DNA of 64,000 nucleotides from Capnocytophaga leadbetteri. Its GTDB lineage: Bacteria > Bacteroidota > Bacteroidia > Flavobacteriales > Flavobacteriaceae. The notes below the pieces were generated by a model. It was given only the letters and a program-made list of their open reading frames with translations, did not search any database and was not told where the DNA came from. The position numbers and the translations under genes are program-made. The stretch lies in the NCBI RefSeq assembly GCF_938018165.1, contig NZ_CALIIH010000010.1, one strand, 5' to 3'. This document shows positions 5,764 through 15,155 of the stretch, in pieces (position 1 is the stretch's first letter; every line of letters starts with the position of its first letter).

Positions 5764-5786
5764 CAGTGAAAAACAAGAGAGAAACT

Positions 5787-6044
5787 ATGTCATACACTAT
5801 CACCATAAACCCAGACTGTAGTCCGTTAGCTTTTTCAGAGTTAAAGGAAACACTTGATTATAAGGAAATAGGCAAAGCTAAAGAACCTAAAAAGGTAGCT
5901 TTGTCGGCTGACATTTGGGACGAAGAAGATTGGGGAATCCCCCCCGATGATATGGAGTTCTTAATGGGAATATCAAGAAAAATTAATAAAAATATAGCAA
6001 AACGCGTAGCTGAAGATTTTAACCTACCTTATAAAACTGAATAA
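5787..6044 (+). CDS. Small hypothetical protein and putative antitoxin partner of the downstream PIN protein. The start is corrected to ATG 5787 (MSYTIT...).
   Basis: 85 aa. Its stop lies 3 nt before the PIN gene start and both genes are on the same strand. It has no recognisable RHH/AbrB/Phd motif. Confidence 0.4.
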   Translation: MSYTITINPDCSPLAFSELKETLDYKEIGKAKEPKKVALSADIWDEEDWGIPPDDMEFLMGISRKINKNIAKRVAEDFNLPYKTE

Positions 6045-6046
6045 TT

Positions 6047-6514
6047 ATGATTATTATAGCCGACAGCAATATTTTTATGAATGCTCTTATTACCCCTGAC
6101 AGCTTAGTAGCTACCATCTTATCTGAAAGAAAGAGAATACAATACATAGTACCTGATTACCTCATAAAAGAAGTAACAGAGCATATACCAGATATTATAG
6201 GACGCACCAAAGAGCCTAAGACCCAACGACAGCTGTTAGCCGATTTTAAGAAACTATTGGAGGGGATTACTATTGTAAATATAAAAGAAGATGTAAAAAA
6301 AGCTAATATACAAAAAGCTGAGGATATAACCAGAGATGTTGATCCTTATGACTATCCTTTTATAGCCTTACACCTTGAGAAAGGGCATAAAATATGGACA
6401 TTGGATAAAGCGTTAAAAAAAGGACTTACAGAAAAAGGATGTGGACACTTCTTTGTTAGACAGGTAGAACTGATTTCAAGACTTTATAAAAAAGAGAATA
6501 AACCACAAAAATGA
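6047..6514 (+). CDS. PIN-domain protein (VapC-like putative ribonuclease toxin)
   Basis: The N-terminal 'MIIIADSNIF' supplies the conserved Asp at position 6. The remaining acidic positions are E (IKEVTEH), D (DVDPYD) and D (WTLDKAL), with spacing as in PIN domains. Its stop overlaps the downstream gene start (ATGA). Confidence 0.6.
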   Translation: MIIIADSNIFMNALITPDSLVATILSERKRIQYIVPDYLIKEVTEHIPDIIGRTKEPKTQRQLLADFKKLLEGITIVNIKEDVKKANIQKAEDITRDVDPYDYPFIALHLEKGHKIWTLDKALKKGLTEKGCGHFFVRQVELISRLYKKENKPQK

Positions 6515-8386: not shown

Positions 8387-8401
8387 GGTCATAGTTTGTC
8401 C
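8387..8401. repeat. 15-bp exact direct repeat GGTCATAGTTTGTCC (left copy)
   Basis: It is identical to 13087-13101. The two copies bracket the phosphoesterase pseudogene and the two DUF262 genes. Confidence 0.8.
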
Positions 8402-8442
8402 GCTACTTTTATGACCTTTACTGCAATAAAAAATTGATAAAA

Positions 8443-8799
8443 TGAAAATACAATATTGTTCGGATTTACAGCTAGTTTTTTTTGAAGAAAGAAGTGAAAA
8501 AAGCGGCAAAAGCTAAGAAAGCTGGCGAGATTGAGCGTATAGTAGTCGCTACCCATTACGTCCCCACCAAAGAGCATTACCCTGAAATATACTTAGACAG
8601 TCCGCTAAATGAAGCTTTTGCGCAAGACCTGACCGATTTTATCGTCTCAAACCCTATATATTATTGGATTTATGGGCATCACCATTTTAACCAGCCTGAC
8701 TTTAAGGTAGGTAACACCCAGCTACTCACCAACCAATTAGGCTACGTAATGCGAGATGAACACGAAGGGTTTGATTGGGAACAACGGGTGGAGGTGTAA
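8443..8799 (+). pseudogene. Calcineurin-like metallophosphoesterase remnant with an internal deletion and frameshift
   Basis: ATG 8443 gives MKIQYCSDLQLVFF (compare MKIxHISDLHL of metallophosphoesterases) and then hits a stop. In the next frame, opened by a TTG, the C-terminal about 100 aa continues and carries a GHHH (GHxH) motif. The middle roughly 150 aa with the GDxxDRG/GNHE motifs is missing. Confidence 0.5.
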
Positions 8800-8874
8800 A
8801 AAAATATAAAAAAAGTTAATGTTGTATTAAAAAAAGTTGTATATTTGTAGCGAAAAATAAAAAAGATATATTTT

Positions 8875-10716
8875 ATGGAAGAAAATAGTATAAAAATGAA
8901 ATCTCTAATAGAGCTTAGAGATGGACGTATCTTCTATGTTCCAGCCTACCAAAGAGGCTACAGATGGAATACGGAACAAGTAGAAGATTTGCTTAATGAC
9001 CTTTATGACTTCGCCTCAGGGAAAAATGAAAATCAGTTTTATTGTTTACAACCTGTTATTGTAAAGCGAATTGTTAGAGATTCTCCTAAATGGAAAGAAA
9101 TTTATGGGGCAAATCCTACGCTCCATGCAGAGGCACCTATTTATGAGGTAGTGGATGGGCAACAAAGGCTTACAACCCTTTACATCTTATTGCAATATAT
9201 CATTAACCATACAACAGATGAAGAAGAAAAAGAAGAGGAACAAAATGCTATATACAATCTCATCTATGAAACAAGAAGAGATTTATCTGGTTATCTTCAA
9301 ACGATAGGAAAGCAATCTAATTTTAGTAATATTGATGAAAAACATGCTTTCAATGCTTATCAAAGTATAGAAAAATGGATTAAAAATAAAAGAACTTTTT
9401 CATTAAAATCTTCCAAAATACGAGAAAAATTAGCGGAATTTCTTTATCAAGATAAGGATACTAAAGAGGATTGTGGTTCCCTACAAGTAGTCTGGTATGA
9501 AATCAATGAAGAAAAGGATGTTATACGTGAGTTTCTAACTATCAACAATGGAAAAATCCAGCTTACAGAAGCAGAACTTATCAAAGCACTTTTCCTACAA
9601 AAGTGCCATTTGGGAGATTACCATTTGGAAACTACGCAAGGAAATATTGCACTTGAGTGGGAACGCATTGAAAATACCTTGCATCAAGATGATTTTTGGT
9701 ATTTTCTGAGCAATGAAAACAAGATTCCTTCCAATCGTATAGAACTACTTCTACGCCTAAATAAAGGTATCTTTGAAACAGATAAAAACAAACTCTTCCG
9801 TTCTTACTATGAGATATTTTATGAAAAAGAAAGTCTTACAGAAAAAGTAAAGGGGGTATGGAAAAATATGATTGCCATTTTTCGTACGTTCGAAGATTGG
9901 TATATCGACCCTATAAAATACAATATGATAGGTTTCCTAACTCACGCAGGTGTTAAGCTCCAAGATATTTATAATGAATATAAAAGCTCCGATGATCAAA
10001 AAGACTTTATAGATAGGCTAAAAAACTTAGTACGAAAAATTATCGGGGAGTATAAAGGAGAGAAAATTGAAAAACTTAGCTATAAAAAAGACCGTAATAC
10101 CATCAGAAAAATACTCCTTTTGATGAATATTCATACGCTAAATACCCAATTGGAAGAATTACGAAAAAAAAATAACAATATAACGAATAGTTCTTCTTAC
10201 AAATTCCCTTTTGATATATTTATCAGTCAAAGTTGGGATGTAGAGCATATTGATTCTGCTACTTCCAATCGATTAAAAGACCATAATGAACAAAAATTAT
10301 GGATAGAAAGTTGTAAAGACTTTATTGAAAAAAAGAAATGGGAGGAAGAAATAATACCTTTATATGAAAAATGGGAAAATGGAGAAGAAAAAGATTGGGA
10401 AAAATGCAAAGAAGCTATTATAACATTGGTAGGTGAAAATCCAGAAGAAGGTGAGGAAGACAAAAATGGAATAAATAATCTCACTCTATTGGATGCTGAA
10501 ACAAATCGCAGTTACGGAAATGCTATTTTTCCTCGTAAACGAAAAGAAATACTTGAAGCCATTCGCAATGGTAAATATGTACCTCAATGTACTCAAATGA
10601 TATTCTATAAAAATTTTAGCAACAGCTCTCTACAAAACACACTTTATTGGAGTAAAGAGAGCAAAGAAGCCTACTTAAACTATATAATTGAAATACTTGA
10701 TTCTTATGGAAAATAA
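8875..10716 (+). CDS. DUF262 (ParB-like nuclease/NTPase) + DUF1524 (His-Me finger/HNH-like) fusion protein, GmrSD-family type IV restriction-like
   Basis: The N-terminal DUF262 motifs are 'YVPAYQRGYRW' and 'VVDGQQRLTTLYIL'. The C-terminal DUF1524-like motifs are 'WDVEHIDSATSN' and 'NNLTLLDAETNRSYGNAIFPRKRK'. Codon usage is very AT-rich and K/E-rich. Confidence 0.75.
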   Translation: MEENSIKMKSLIELRDGRIFYVPAYQRGYRWNTEQVEDLLNDLYDFASGKNENQFYCLQPVIVKRIVRDSPKWKEIYGANPTLHAEAPIYEVVDGQQRLTTLYILLQYIINHTTDEEEKEEEQNAIYNLIYETRRDLSGYLQTIGKQSNFSNIDEKHAFNAYQSIEKWIKNKRTFSLKSSKIREKLAEFLYQDKDTKEDCGSLQVVWYEINEEKDVIREFLTINNGKIQLTEAELIKALFLQKCHLGDYHLETTQGNIALEWERIENTLHQDDFWYFLSNENKIPSNRIELLLRLNKGIFETDKNKLFRSYYEIFYEKESLTEKVKGVWKNMIAIFRTFEDWYIDPIKYNMIGFLTHAGVKLQDIYNEYKSSDDQKDFIDRLKNLVRKIIGEYKGEKIEKLSYKKDRNTIRKILLLMNIHTLNTQLEELRKKNNNITNSSSYKFPFDIFISQSWDVEHIDSATSNRLKDHNEQKLWIESCKDFIEKKKWEEEIIPLYEKWENGEEKDWEKCKEAIITLVGENPEEGEEDKNGINNLTLLDAETNRSYGNAIFPRKRKEILEAIRNGKYVPQCTQMIFYKNFSNSSLQNTLYWSKESKEAYLNYIIEILDSYGK

Positions 10717-13024
10717 TTTATATACCCTAGAAAAACTCCTTACAGAAGAATTTGAAAACCACACCCTTAAACAGATTGTAATCCCTAAGATACAACGCTC
10801 TTATGCACAAGGGCGGAAGGAAGAATTACAAGTACGCATGAGTATTCTTGAAGAACTCTTCAGAACCTTAAAGGAAGAACAAGATATAGAACTCAACTTT
10901 ATTTATGGCTCTTTAAAGGAAAACGGAACATACGAATTACTTGATGGGCAACAACGTATTACCACCCTATTCTTGTTATACCTTTATGCTTATTTACAAG
11001 AAAAAGGATCATTGCCTGATTGGTTCAAAAACTGTTTGACCTACGAAACGCGACATTCCTCTCGTGACTTTATTGAAGAACTATGCGAGCTAAATCAGCT
11101 TACAAATGAGGAATATACCTTACCTAGTACGTATATCAAAAACCAAAAATGGTATAATAATGCCTTCCGCTTAGACCCTTCTATAGAAGCAATGCTTATC
11201 ATGCTTGATACGATTGATTGGTATTATAAAGAAACAGGAGAGCGGATAGCTGATAAGTTGAAACATATTCGTTTTTATGCTTTGAATCTTAATAATTTCA
11301 ATCTTACGGAAGAACTATATATAAAAATGAATGCAAGAGGATTACCTCTTACTCCTTTTGAAAATTTCAAAGCCGATTTAGTAGGGTATTACAAACCTAA
11401 TAAAGATGTAGCTGATAAAGAGTTCAAATCGTGGTTAGACTTTGCCACTAAATTGGATACTGAATGGATTGACATTTTTTGGAATAAAGAAAGCTCTGAT
11501 AAAGATGTTGATAACCAATATTTCCGCTTTTTCTATCGTGTAGCAACAATTCTAACTATTATTTTTTCTAAAGAAAATTCTGATAGTTTTAATTTTTTCC
11601 GACAAGAAAGTGAAATTCAAACAGATGATAAAGCCCGTTATTTAGGATTTGGACATTACAAAGTGTTGTTTGATACTTTAGGAAAAGACAAAAGTAGAGA
11701 AATGCTAACGCTGTTGCTTGATACTTTCAAATCATACCCTACAATTTTTGAAGAGGCTAAAGCAGCTTGGGGAGAACAAATAACTCCTTTTGCTGATGTT
11801 AAAAACTATTCTCAAAAGAATGCCGTAGTTTTTGCAGGAATTGTCTTGTATATCCTTACTCAAAAAACTTCACCTAAGGAGAATACAGACTTTAAACATT
11901 GGATGCGTGTAGTGTGGAATACTGTTGAAAATACAGATATTAATGGGGTAGTTCCTCAAGTGGGTACTATTCGTGTTTTATACAATCTTATAAGTGAGAG
12001 TCAAGGAGACATTTATAACCATTTAGCACAACAGGAAAAAGGAGCTACCAATGCTATAGATGAAGAAATTCGAAAAGCAAAACTTATCGTACAAGATAAT
12101 AGGTTTGAAGAAGTGCTTCAAAAACAAGAAGGACACGAGTTCTTTAAAGGCTTTGCTGGGGTAATACTCTCTGAAGGAGTAAGCTATGAATGCCTTAAGA
12201 ATCGCGTAGAAAGAATAGCTCCTCTGTTTGATAAAACGGGTATAAGTCCCGAATATCGCAATGAAGAACATCTACTCATTAGAGCTTGTATAACAAGTTT
12301 TAGAGAAGATATAAATAAACTTACCAACAATATTTTTATTACAGAACGTGTTGAAGATGATTCTAGACTTAAAAAGTTTTTAAGAGAGAATATAGTTACG
12401 ACTTTCATTCAATCGATTCTAGATAAAGAAGAAGAGATTCTTAAACACCTACGTAATATCATTGAAAAGTTTAAACTTCCTGATGATTTATACAAACAAA
12501 ATTATGCTTATGAACGTCTTGTAAAAGAAGCTAAATTATTTGAGTGGATTAAAGATCACACTTACACTTACAATAATAAAGATGTTTATTTTAAATCAGG
12601 TTATTCAGCAGAGACTTGGACTTATTATTTACATTTCCCTGGAAGGAAATATGATTATTTGTATTTAAATAATAAACGTGGTAAAATAATACCTAAATTT
12701 AGAGAAAAGGGATATGATTTTAATGATACCAATGATGGCAATAATCAAAGAAAGGCTATTGAAAAGTACAATGATTGTTTTGGATATTGGCCAATAGAGT
12801 TAAGCAAAACTGTTAGTTTTTATAAAATCATTCTTAGTTTCAATATTGACAATAAATTAACCGTTTTCATTCCTGATTTACTCGTAGATGAAAATCTTCT
12901 CGCTTTATTTGACCAACCTAATTCTGAAAATAAAACCATTGTAAAAGTGTTAGACTTAGATAATGATGAAGTTACTATATTTTCTGCTATAGAAGAGATA
13001 GAAAATAAAGTTAACTCTTTATAA
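10688..13024 (+). CDS. DUF262 domain protein (paralog partner; no DUF1524/HNH motif found) with a roughly 500-aa uncharacterised C-terminal region
   Basis: Motifs 'VIPKIQRSYAQG' and 'LLDGQQRITTLFLL' are present. It overlaps the upstream gene by 29 nt on the same strand, which implies an operon. I found no EHI/NxxLLxxxxN motif. Confidence 0.7.
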   Translation: MKYLILMENNLYTLEKLLTEEFENHTLKQIVIPKIQRSYAQGRKEELQVRMSILEELFRTLKEEQDIELNFIYGSLKENGTYELLDGQQRITTLFLLYLYAYLQEKGSLPDWFKNCLTYETRHSSRDFIEELCELNQLTNEEYTLPSTYIKNQKWYNNAFRLDPSIEAMLIMLDTIDWYYKETGERIADKLKHIRFYALNLNNFNLTEELYIKMNARGLPLTPFENFKADLVGYYKPNKDVADKEFKSWLDFATKLDTEWIDIFWNKESSDKDVDNQYFRFFYRVATILTIIFSKENSDSFNFFRQESEIQTDDKARYLGFGHYKVLFDTLGKDKSREMLTLLLDTFKSYPTIFEEAKAAWGEQITPFADVKNYSQKNAVVFAGIVLYILTQKTSPKENTDFKHWMRVVWNTVENTDINGVVPQVGTIRVLYNLISESQGDIYNHLAQQEKGATNAIDEEIRKAKLIVQDNRFEEVLQKQEGHEFFKGFAGVILSEGVSYECLKNRVERIAPLFDKTGISPEYRNEEHLLIRACITSFREDINKLTNNIFITERVEDDSRLKKFLRENIVTTFIQSILDKEEEILKHLRNIIEKFKLPDDLYKQNYAYERLVKEAKLFEWIKDHTYTYNNKDVYFKSGYSAETWTYYLHFPGRKYDYLYLNNKRGKIIPKFREKGYDFNDTNDGNNQRKAIEKYNDCFGYWPIELSKTVSFYKIILSFNIDNKLTVFIPDLLVDENLLALFDQPNSENKTIVKVLDLDNDEVTIFSAIEEIENKVNSL

Positions 13025-13034
13025 TTCTACAAAA

Positions 13035-13068
13035 CCTCCCCCACTCCTAAAAAGTGGGGAGTTTTTTT
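13035..13068 (+). terminator. Rho-independent terminator (GC stem ctcccccact / agtgggga + TTTTTTT)
   Basis: aaacctcccccactcctaaaaagtggggagttttttt, immediately after the stop of the second DUF262 gene. Confidence 0.8.
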
Positions 13069-13086
13069 AAAGAAAAAAATATAGTC

Positions 13087-13101
13087 GGTCATAGTTTGTC
13101 C
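13087..13101. repeat. 15-bp exact direct repeat GGTCATAGTTTGTCC (right copy)
   Basis: Identical to 8387-8401. It is followed by the -7 box for the next gene. Confidence 0.8.
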
Positions 13102-13112
13102 ATTTTGTTTTG

Positions 13113-13120
13113 TATCTTTG
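13113..13120 (+). promoter_or_regulatory. -7 box TATCTTTG for the 13145 gene
   Basis: 'ttttgtatctttgcc' lies 25 nt upstream of the ATG. Confidence 0.5.
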
Positions 13121-13144
13121 CCGTGTAATTTTTAAAGTAATACA

Positions 13145-13435
13145 ATGAATCTTTACTTAGACGACCTCCGTACTACTCCTGAGGGGTTTGAGCGGGTGTA
13201 TAGTTACGAGGAATTTGTAGCTTATCTTCAGCATTATGGGTTGCCTGATTTTATCTCGTTTGACCACGATTTGGGCGAGGAGTTTTCGGGCTATGATTGT
13301 GCCAAATATTTGGTGGATTATTGTTTAGACCGTCAGTTGCCTTTACCCAAGTTTGTAGTGCACAGTCAAAACCCTGTAGGTAAGGCGAATATAGAACAAC
13401 TATTAGCAAATTTTAAAAAGAATATAGAATTTTAA
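13145..13435 (+). CDS. Standalone REC-fold (receiver-like) small protein. It resembles the 'cREC' cyclic-phosphate-processing receiver family.
   Basis: 96 aa. The REC catalytic-pocket pattern is preserved: 'YLDDLR' (DD), 'ISFDHDLG' (the Asp at the phospho-acceptor position), 'VHSQNP' (Ser/Thr) and 'GKANI' (Lys). It has no output domain. The cREC assignment is from memory of that family's description. Confidence 0.5.
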   Translation: MNLYLDDLRTTPEGFERVYSYEEFVAYLQHYGLPDFISFDHDLGEEFSGYDCAKYLVDYCLDRQLPLPKFVVHSQNPVGKANIEQLLANFKKNIEF

Positions 13436-13446
13436 TAAATAAAACT

Positions 13447-14355
13447 ATGGCTAAAAAAGAACAATTATTGCGATTAGTGCATATCGTAAAAGCTCTTGAA
13501 AAGGCTCCTGAAGGGGGACTTAGCTATCAGGAGCTATACGACTACCTAAAACAAAAACACGAGGATAAAGATTGTGAGAAGTTTAGCTTCTCAGAAAAAA
13601 CTTTTCAGCGGGATAGGCATCTGTTAGAAGATATTTTTATGATTTATATTGCGCCTAATGGTAAAGGGCGATGGGTGATTGAAGAAAGCGAACTAACAAA
13701 CCGGTATGCTATTTTTGACAACATTTTATTAGTAGATGCCTACCGTCGCACTAAAGAGATGCAAGAGGTGCTACTATTTGAACGACAAGAGAAAACACTA
13801 GGCTTAAACCATATTGAAGACATTATTGAGGCTATAGAAAAACATCGTACTGTGCGGTTTTTCTACACCAAATTTTGGGAAGGGGTTGCTTGCCAGCGTG
13901 AAATGGTGCCTTATGCCTTAAAGGAACACAATAGGCGTTGGTATCTGATTGCTGCTGAGCACAAAGAGCCTATGCAGTTTAAGGCTTTTGGCTTAGACCG
14001 TATTTCTCAATTGGAGGTTACAACTACTAAAGTACAACGCAAAAAAGTGAATATAGAAGCCCTTTTTAAAAATACTTATGGGGTAATGATTGATACGGAA
14101 ACACCTCCGCAAGAGGTTATTTTATCGTTTGACTACGAGCAGGGGCAGTATGTTAAAACCCTACCACTGCACCCCTCGCAAAAGCTATTAGAGGACAATG
14201 AGGATGAGGTGCGTATCAGCTTGCAGCTCGTTCCTACTTACAATTTTGTGATGGAGATATGTGCCCGCAGTCAGTATGTGAAAGTGCTCGCTCCTGCTAC
14301 ATTGGCAGAAGAGGTGAAAGAACATCTAAAAAAAGCATATGAACAGTATTTGTAA
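13447..14355 (+). CDS. WYL-domain transcriptional regulator (N-terminal wHTH + WYL, BrxR/CapW/PafBC-like)
   Basis: The N-terminal HTH-like segment is 'LLRLVHIVKALEKAPEGGLSYQELYDYL'. The central segment 'NRRWYLIAAEH' contains the WYL tripeptide. The gene starts 12 nt after the small REC-like gene. Confidence 0.7.
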   Translation: MAKKEQLLRLVHIVKALEKAPEGGLSYQELYDYLKQKHEDKDCEKFSFSEKTFQRDRHLLEDIFMIYIAPNGKGRWVIEESELTNRYAIFDNILLVDAYRRTKEMQEVLLFERQEKTLGLNHIEDIIEAIEKHRTVRFFYTKFWEGVACQREMVPYALKEHNRRWYLIAAEHKEPMQFKAFGLDRISQLEVTTTKVQRKKVNIEALFKNTYGVMIDTETPPQEVILSFDYEQGQYVKTLPLHPSQKLLEDNEDEVRISLQLVPTYNFVMEICARSQYVKVLAPATLAEEVKEHLKKAYEQYL

Positions 14356-14394: not shown

Positions 14395-14402
14395 TATCTT
14401 TG
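14395..14402 (+). promoter_or_regulatory. -7 box TATCTTTG for ubiE
   Basis: 'ttttgtatctttgc' lies 19 nt upstream of ATG 14421. The track start 14400 is a TTG inside this promoter. Confidence 0.5.
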
Positions 14403-14420
14403 CAAAAAATTACGCATCGT

Positions 14421-15155
14421 ATGTCAGCAAACACAGTTACTCCTTATGAAAATTCGGCACAAGGCAAAAAACAACAAGTTACCCAAATGTTTAACACCAT
14501 ATCGGGTACATATGACGGGCTAAACCGTGTTATTTCTTGGGGTTCGGATATAAAATGGCGTAAGTTTGTGGTACAGAAAGTAGCTGAAATACACCCTACA
14601 GCTGTATTAGATGTCGCTACAGGTACAGGTGATTTGGCCATTGCCCTTACTGAAATAAAAGGGGTGAAAATCACTGGGTTAGACATCTCAGAGGGAATGC
14701 TGTCAGTAGGGCGCGAAAAGGTAGCAAAGCGCAATCTTGCTGACCGCATTACCTTAGTACAAGGTGATAGTGAGCAACTGCCCTTTGCTGATGAGACTTT
14801 TGATGCCGTAACAGTAGGATTTGGGGTGCGTAACTTTGAAGATTTAGAAAAAGGACTTTCTGAAATTAGACGTGTGTTAAAACCTAATGGTCGGTTGGTA
14901 GTCTTAGAAACCTCAGTACCTGAGAAATTCCCTTTTAGGCAGGGGTATCATCTGTATACTAACTATGTGATGCCTTTGGTAGGCAAGTTGTTTTCTAAAG
15001 ACCGCTCGGCGTACCGATACCTATCTAACTCGGCAATACACTTTCCGTATGGGAAGAAATTTCAAGAGATATTAAACAAGGTAGGCTATCAGCAAACTAA
15101 GTATTACCCTAAAACATTGGGTGGCGTCGCTACCATTTATATTGCAAATAAATAG
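14421..15155 (+). CDS. ubiE: Demethylmenaquinone / ubiquinone C-methyltransferase UbiE/MenG
   Basis: The SAM-binding motif is 'VLDVATGTGDLAIAL'. Length is about 244 aa. The synteny in which a PorT gene follows ubiE is as recalled for Flavobacterium. Confidence 0.9.
   Translation: MSANTVTPYENSAQGKKQQVTQMFNTISGTYDGLNRVISWGSDIKWRKFVVQKVAEIHPTAVLDVATGTGDLAIALTEIKGVKITGLDISEGMLSVGREKVAKRNLADRITLVQGDSEQLPFADETFDAVTVGFGVRNFEDLEKGLSEIRRVLKPNGRLVVLETSVPEKFPFRQGYHLYTNYVMPLVGKLFSKDRSAYRYLSNSAIHFPYGKKFQEILNKVGYQQTKYYPKTLGGVATIYIANK

Follow-up and report, generated by a model that had tools for sequence, protein, structure and literature searches.

Two two-protein GmrSD-like systems have been published, TgvAB in 2024 and GrwAB in 2025. 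GrwAB (Adams et al., Nat Microbiol 2025; PMC12137116) comes from Vibrio cholerae of the West African-South American lineage and consists of GrwA, a 603-amino-acid (aa) protein with fused DUF262 and DUF1524 domains that is encoded first, and GrwB, an 821-aa protein encoded second that has a DUF262 domain and several domains of unknown function; in the preprint tables, the last base of grwA is the first base of grwB. Their accessions are AWB73057.1 (GrwA) and AWB73058.1 (GrwB). Both proteins are needed and neither protects alone, and defence is abolished by the substitutions R81A, H431A, N521A and N530A in GrwA and by R86A in GrwB (PMC12137116). The system restricts phages with sugar-modified hydroxymethylcytosine or 7-deazaguanine and acts on Tevenvirinae and Queuovirinae, the phages that escape it have dpdA mutations, GrwAB cultures show neither the arrested growth nor the early lysis that are typical of abortive infection, and homologues are present in about 1% of genomes (PMC12137116). 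Here we analyse an overlapping pair of genes, gene 1 and gene 2, within a 64-kb stretch of Capnocytophaga leadbetteri DNA (contig NZ_CALIIH010000010.1), the whole of which we refer to as the window. The sequence points, with a probability of about 0.82, to the pair being the C. leadbetteri member of GrwAB, a two-protein, GmrSD-like family of modification-dependent type IV restriction systems.

V. cholerae GrwA and GrwB and the published hits, which include a different Capnocytophaga pair from C. endodontalis, were compared as the first 400 aa of each, as given in the preprint tables. Using BLASTP, gene 1 aligns with GrwA at 33% identity over 435 columns (199 bits) and gene 2 with GrwB at 36% identity over 299 columns (134-147 bits), and these best matches are reciprocal. 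The published hits score 176-245 bits (GrwA) and 142-202 bits (GrwB) among themselves, and the scores of the window genes are within or just under this range and far above the 23-58 bits of either gene with TgvA or TgvB (45-58 bits for gene 1 against TgvB). A family profile of 27 gene 1-related sequences scores 293 bits with V. cholerae GrwA, compared with 29-44 bits for other GmrSD-like proteins, and a profile of 30 gene 2-related sequences scores 278 bits with the first 400 aa of V. cholerae GrwB and 227-293 bits with the other published GrwB hits; either profile gives 23-48 bits with the wrong partner or with the Tgv proteins. The pair agrees with GrwAB in its architecture and gene order, in the lengths of the proteins, in the signature motifs and in the profile scores.

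The initial annotation had placed two overlapping genes here, with DUF262 in both products and DUF1524 in the first, and this description holds. Both open reading frames are on the + strand where they were placed, and a Pfam hidden Markov model search finds PF03235 (GmrSD_N/DUF262) at aa 16-241 of the gene 1 protein (E value 1.3e-31) and at aa 21-231 of the gene 2 protein (5.5e-22). The gene 1 protein (WP_304346974.1), annotated merely as 'DUF262 domain-containing protein', is built like GrwA: a DUF262 domain that carries QR, DGQQR and FxxxN motifs is joined through a helical linker to a His-Me nuclease domain of the DUF1524 type, with its H...N...N triad intact (H458, N535, N544). It has the motifs PAYQRGYRW and FYCLQP in common with GrwA, the intact arginine of its DGQQR motif (R98) corresponds to GrwA R81, and in each protein a spacing of nine residues separates the two nuclease asparagines (N535/N544 and N521/N530). 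Gene 2 encodes QRSYAQGR, DGQQR and YIKMNARG motifs, of which IQRxYAQGR and YIKMNARG are common to GrwB, and its DGQQR arginine (R84), also intact, corresponds to GrwB R86. Neither protein has a match in NCBIfam, and PADLOC-DB 2.0.0 (2023), which is without a GrwAB model, yields only generic matches to GmrSD-type N-domains (Orf5, HEC-06, SspE).

The long C-terminal part of gene 2 was originally described as about 500 aa of uncharacterised sequence without an HNH motif, and this agrees with our searches. About 490 residues past DUF262 fit no Pfam family, aa 241-772 have no Pfam match, and the full-length protein matches nothing beyond DUF262 in Pfam, PADLOC, NCBIfam or PDB sequences, from which we take it to be without an HNH motif. 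The structure model has a helical region followed by a small alpha/beta domain, and for the C-terminal end of the GrwB-type protein the predicted fold is like that of a type III secretion chaperone or a YbjN-family domain; a weak resemblance to the C-terminal domain of SspE is seen in part of what remains. Gene 2 aa 291-772 match 260 representative clusters among 1.84 billion proteins, and because nearly all of these are proteins of 750-880 aa with the match at the same position, the region is confined to the GrwB-type architecture.

Gene 2 had been thought to start 29 nucleotides (nt) inside gene 1. The genes do overlap, with a 29-nt overlap being true only for an alternative TTG start at 10688 (778 aa), and since gene 2 homologues start where the counterpart of ATG 10706 lies, the two genes share 11 nt. 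The pair is AT-rich and its products are rich in Lys, Glu and Asn, as noted at the outset: the G+C content is 0.318 for the pair and 0.390 for the remainder of the window, the mean for the window as a whole is 0.383 (standard deviation 0.024), the lowest 4150-bp stretch at a sampling interval of 250 nt (0.316, start 9001) lies within the pair, and the Lys/Glu/Asn contents are 10.1/11.3/7.8% for gene 1 and 8.7/9.6/7.4% for gene 2, compared with 7.5/6.2/5.6% for flanking housekeeping proteins. Over the first 24 kb or so of the window (some 9-11 kb each side of the pair) no DNA methyltransferase was seen, again in agreement with the first description, and the sole methyltransferase there is a UbiE-type small-molecule enzyme at 14400..15155.

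A scan for the gene 2 family, using one genome per species, identified 80 loci from Bacteroidota, Clostridia, Campylobacterota, Actinomycetota, Proteobacteria, Chlorobiota, Verrucomicrobiota and other groups. In 75 of these, the gene immediately upstream, in the same orientation, is a fused gene 1-like gene, with a projected gap between the two genes of median 15 nt (range -30 to +86), and the five others each have no more than 615 nt of upstream DNA, such that the genes are coupled in all 75 assessable loci. This strictness bears on the proposition that gene 1 is a self-sufficient, single-chain enzyme of the GmrSD/BrxU type, with gene 2 being either independent or accessory, for example by serving as an extra sensor to broaden the range or as a decoy against phage inhibitors. 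Gene 1 does carry every catalytic motif, and single-chain GmrSD enzymes work alone (PMC4437046; HEC-05/06). We consider this reading unlikely given the invariable coupling with short or negative gaps, and given that in V. cholerae neither GrwA nor GrwB is protective alone and that GrwB R86A abolishes defence (PMC12137116). A third gene, of about 270 aa, is present downstream of the pair in two loci (L001 and L004) and was considered as a further component; it is not part of the system, because it is not conserved across loci.

A second possibility is that the pair senses phosphorothioate DNA, as SspE or DndI do, and not modified bases. The best structural matches for both the gene 1 and the gene 2 model are indeed DndI (9jfl) and SspE (6jiv); no ssp or dnd phosphorothioation genes were seen between position 1 and about 24 kb of the window, and we regard the proposition as highly improbable. 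That the pair is TgvAB, the V. cholerae VPI-2 system, is less probable still. The general idea is the same, with a DUF262-only protein and a fused DUF262-DUF1524 protein both being required. However, TgvA-family proteins are about 470 aa long and contain DUF7834 (PF25202; P0241, E value 3.8e-44), for which neither gene 2 nor three of its relatives has a match, and the lack of DUF7834 in gene 2 in itself means that the pair is not TgvAB. In addition, profile-profile alignment (hhalign) of the gene 2 and TgvA families covers only 92 DUF262 columns, the TgvAB order of DUF262-only first and fused second is reversed here, the GrwB signature YAQGR was not found in the portion of the TgvAB hit table examined, and the bit scores given above are low; that identity was ruled out on domain content (no DUF7834), profile-profile comparison, order of the genes and score. 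Equally remote is the proposal that this is not a defence system at all and is instead a core DNA-binding or regulatory pair of the ParB/DndB type, suggested by the place of DUF262 within the ParB-like superfamily, as the pair is variable in presence (a 28-member cluster at 90%, where core genes nearby have about 1190 members), gives way at its site to other nucleases, is low in G+C and has an invariant nuclease triad.

Several observations weigh against assignment of the pair to GrwAB. Identity to V. cholerae GrwAB is just 33-36% over the comparable parts, and the modification recognised could therefore differ from that of the tested system. The C-terminal halves are tied to GrwA and GrwB indirectly, as the comparison covers residues 1-400 of each; the link to GrwB runs through proteins such as P0423 and P0442, which align with GrwB over 370-391 aa and, at E values of 1e-13 and 1e-10, with the C-terminal region of gene 2. 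The metallophosphoesterase gene that frames the pair is degraded in this strain, and we know of no modified Capnocytophaga phage. DUF1524 of gene 1 scores under the Pfam threshold (20.3 vs 23 bits). The domain is real despite this score, since E457-H458, N535, N544 and N549 are invariant across 27 gene 1 homologues of 39-87% identity, many of the homologues have a PF07510 match, and in the AlphaFold model (predicted local distance difference test score 83) H458 stands at a strand end, after which come a helical insert, another strand (536-539) and a helix (541-547).

By extension from the work in V. cholerae, the GrwA-type and GrwB-type proteins would act together, probably as a complex, in which the DUF262 domains would sense hypermodified phage DNA through NTP binding and hydrolysis, with sugar-modified hydroxymethylcytosine or 7-deazaguanine DNA being the candidate substrates. 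Sensing would then license the GrwA nuclease to cut the modified DNA, and a methyltransferase would not be needed because unmodified host DNA is not a substrate. Immunity would presumably be direct and not abortive; of the two functions initially offered, a horizontally acquired, two-protein, modification-dependent GmrSD-like restriction system is supported, and abortive infection is not favoured because GrwAB cultures do not show growth arrest or early lysis (PMC12137116). In C. leadbetteri, we propose that the pair is an exchangeable cargo that may be expressed from a conserved promoter of the slot in which it sits, with a WYL protein as the likely regulator.

This slot lies between a metallophosphoesterase gene and a cREC-WYL gene pair (window 8387..14355; loci L094-L126), and its features are listed in Table 1. 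Close relatives carry the pair together with the metallophosphoesterase, cREC_REC and WYL-WCX genes, in two gene orders and at two chromosomal sites; in C. gingivalis-like contigs (L007-L010) the same five genes are at the other site with cREC upstream of grwA. Two contigs of the same species align with the window on the left to about 8813-8869 and on the right from about 13033-13039, with the L096 contig, which has a different cargo, staying alignable up to about 8869. Contigs of this species have a TgvAB-type pair or PDDEXK_4/PDC-S26 nucleases at precisely the position of the pair, a defence context that speaks for GrwAB. As these same-species alignments break at the edges of the pair, the exchanged unit is exactly grwAB. 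The metallophosphoesterase gene is intact (270 aa) in a close relative (L011). At 90% clustering, GrwA of the pair belongs to a 28-member cluster, compared with 1198 members for the WYL regulator and 1184 for a neighbouring housekeeping gene, and on these sizes the frame looks core-like and the cargo rare.

Table 1. Positions of the gene pair, its frame genes and putative regulatory elements in the window
Feature	Position	Strand	Description
15-mer GGTCATAGTTTGTCC, copy 1	8387..8401	+	upstream of metallophosphoesterase gene
metallophosphoesterase remnant	8442..8799	+	internal deletion of about 490 nt and frameshift
-7-like box TATATTTG	8840..8847	+	Bacteroidetes-type TAnnTTTG; 27 nt upstream of grwA ATG
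grwA-like gene (gene 1)	8875..10716	+	ATG start, 613 aa; fused DUF262 (NTPase/sensor), helical linker, DUF1524 His-Me nuclease
grwB-like gene (gene 2)	10706..13024 (alternative TTG 10688)	+	772 aa from ATG; DUF262 N-domain, helical middle, C-terminal alpha/beta domain
terminator-like hairpin CTCCCCCAC...GTGGGGAG and T-run	13036..13068	+	right edge of swapped segment
15-mer GGTCATAGTTTGTCC, copy 2	13087..13101	+	44 nt upstream of cREC ATG
cREC_REC gene	13145..13435	+	PF20274, E value 4.1e-28; predicted cyclic-phosphate-processing receiver-like domain; conserved frame
WYL-WCX transcription regulator	13447..14355	+	Pfam WYL 7.8e-13, WCX 1.6e-8; conserved frame

To survey the cargos, a metagenome scan was made with the WYL protein, and the genes directly upstream of cREC were scored in 28 cREC-containing contigs. 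The frame genes proved conserved, with variable content between them. PD-(D/E)XK nucleases (Pfam PDDEXK_4 / PADLOC candidate PDC-S26) occupy the position in 17 of the 28. GrwAB pairs of a lineage with 67-69% identity are found in three, GrwAB pairs of a lineage with about 30% identity in a further three, and TgvAB-type pairs (GmrSD_N with DUF7834, followed by GmrSD_N with GmrSD_C) in another three, while a UDG-like protein and another DUF262-containing set are found in one contig each. The pair in the slot of strain L096 is a true TgvAB-type one, in the order TgvA then TgvB. In three loci (L094, L109 and L115), two open reading frames are located just upstream of cREC, one of 371-396 aa that matches no Pfam family and a further one with DUF262 (206-224 aa in L094 and L115, 564 aa in L109); in L094 and L115 they come after a divergent GrwAB pair, and in L109 GrwAB was not detected.

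The TATATTTG box is inside the conserved left frame of the slot and is a putative promoter element. On the right, the hairpin formed by CTCCCCCAC and GTGGGGAG is kept downstream of GrwAB, TgvAB-type and PDDEXK_4 cargos. The 15-mer GGTCATAGTTTGTCC has exactly two matches in the window, where 0.03 are expected. A further 18 related loci also have an exact copy, which in those checked stands upstream of cREC, and the 15-mer is a candidate promoter element or a candidate operator, in the latter case for the WYL regulator. The WYL-WCX protein is annotated as YafY family and BrxR-like, and its best PDB match is 7qfz, a WYL-domain protein. One interpretation, which we regard as doubtful, is that the metallophosphoesterase-[cargo]-cREC-WYL frame constitutes a sensor-and-reset arrangement controlling swappable Capnocytophaga nuclease cassettes. 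The WYL regulator would bind GGTCATAGTTTGTCC and respond to a nucleotide or cyclic-phosphate signal derived from infection, the cREC and metallophosphoesterase enzymes would then reset the signal, and GrwAB, TgvAB-type pairs and PD-(D/E)XK nucleases would be the interchangeable cassettes.

Beyond Capnocytophaga, the metallophosphoesterase and cREC are not general companions of GrwAB in the GrwAB-like loci scanned. In 11 other genomes of Bacteroidota (L019, L020, L036, L040-L042, L044, L054, L085, L090 and L093), a homologue of the WYL regulator (24-33% identity) is no more than 6 kb away from a GrwAB-like pair, which suggests that the association between WYL and GrwAB is recurrent, although not universal. 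Elsewhere in the window, a small open reading frame and a PIN_2-domain protein (E value 8.3e-18) at 5766..6514 (G+C content 0.343) form an insert between an arginase-family gene and a 2-hydroxyacid dehydrogenase gene that is absent at the syntenic location in L011, and is probably a separately inserted toxin-antitoxin-like pair.

The arrangement was initially regarded as unrecognised and possibly novel, with an exact match to an already-named system counted in advance against the idea. With TgvAB and GrwAB both published and the pair matching GrwAB, the claim of novelty fails. The value of the pair itself is in annotation, including that of the copy in this oral commensal: thousands of pairs in Bacteroidota and other phyla now listed as 'DUF262 domain-containing protein' can be named GrwAB-type type IV restriction. 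A slot beside cREC-WYL that holds GrwAB, TgvAB-type or PD-(D/E)XK cargos is in addition a natural system for studying the regulation and exchange of nucleases.

In comparison with known systems, the likeness is closest to GrwAB. The fused protein is first (603 aa in GrwA, 613 aa in gene 1), the protein with DUF262 and a long uncharacterised C-terminus is second (821 aa in GrwB, 772 aa in gene 2), the two genes overlap or adjoin directly, and the nuclease keeps its H/N/N triad. The differences are that the host belongs to Bacteroidota and not to Gammaproteobacteria, that V. cholerae GrwAB adjoins a Shedu gene in VSP-II whereas the pair here is in a slot framed by metallophosphoesterase, cREC and WYL genes, and that the insert from the catalytic histidine to the first asparagine is 77 residues in gene 1 and 90 in GrwA. 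TgvAB similarly requires a DUF262-only partner with a fused DUF262-DUF1524 nuclease, and it restricts phages with glucosylated hydroxymethylcytosine; however, it sits inside a type I restriction-modification operon, and its protein families are more than 180 bits apart from those of GrwAB in profile scores. Eco94GmrSD, BrxU and HEC-05/06 act alone, whereas the GrwAB-type family is invariably found with a second DUF262 protein, and SspE and DndI are each one protein, with genetic linkage to ssp or dnd modification genes, which were not seen within about the first 24 kb of the window. The frame resembles BrxR-type systems in that a WYL-WCX regulator adjoins swappable defence genes and cREC is beside WYL. 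WYL regulators beside defence islands (the BrxR family) have been described (PMC9122601) and the cREC-WYL association has been noted computationally (PMC7824862, PMC9503650); none of these three reports was found to describe a fixed slot of the metallophosphoesterase-[cargo]-cREC-WYL type in which the cassette boundaries are precise, and only this specific slot is a new detail. The precisely bounded C. leadbetteri slot with its alternative cargos, and the hint as to the fold of the GrwB C-terminus, are thus the additions to the published description of GrwAB.

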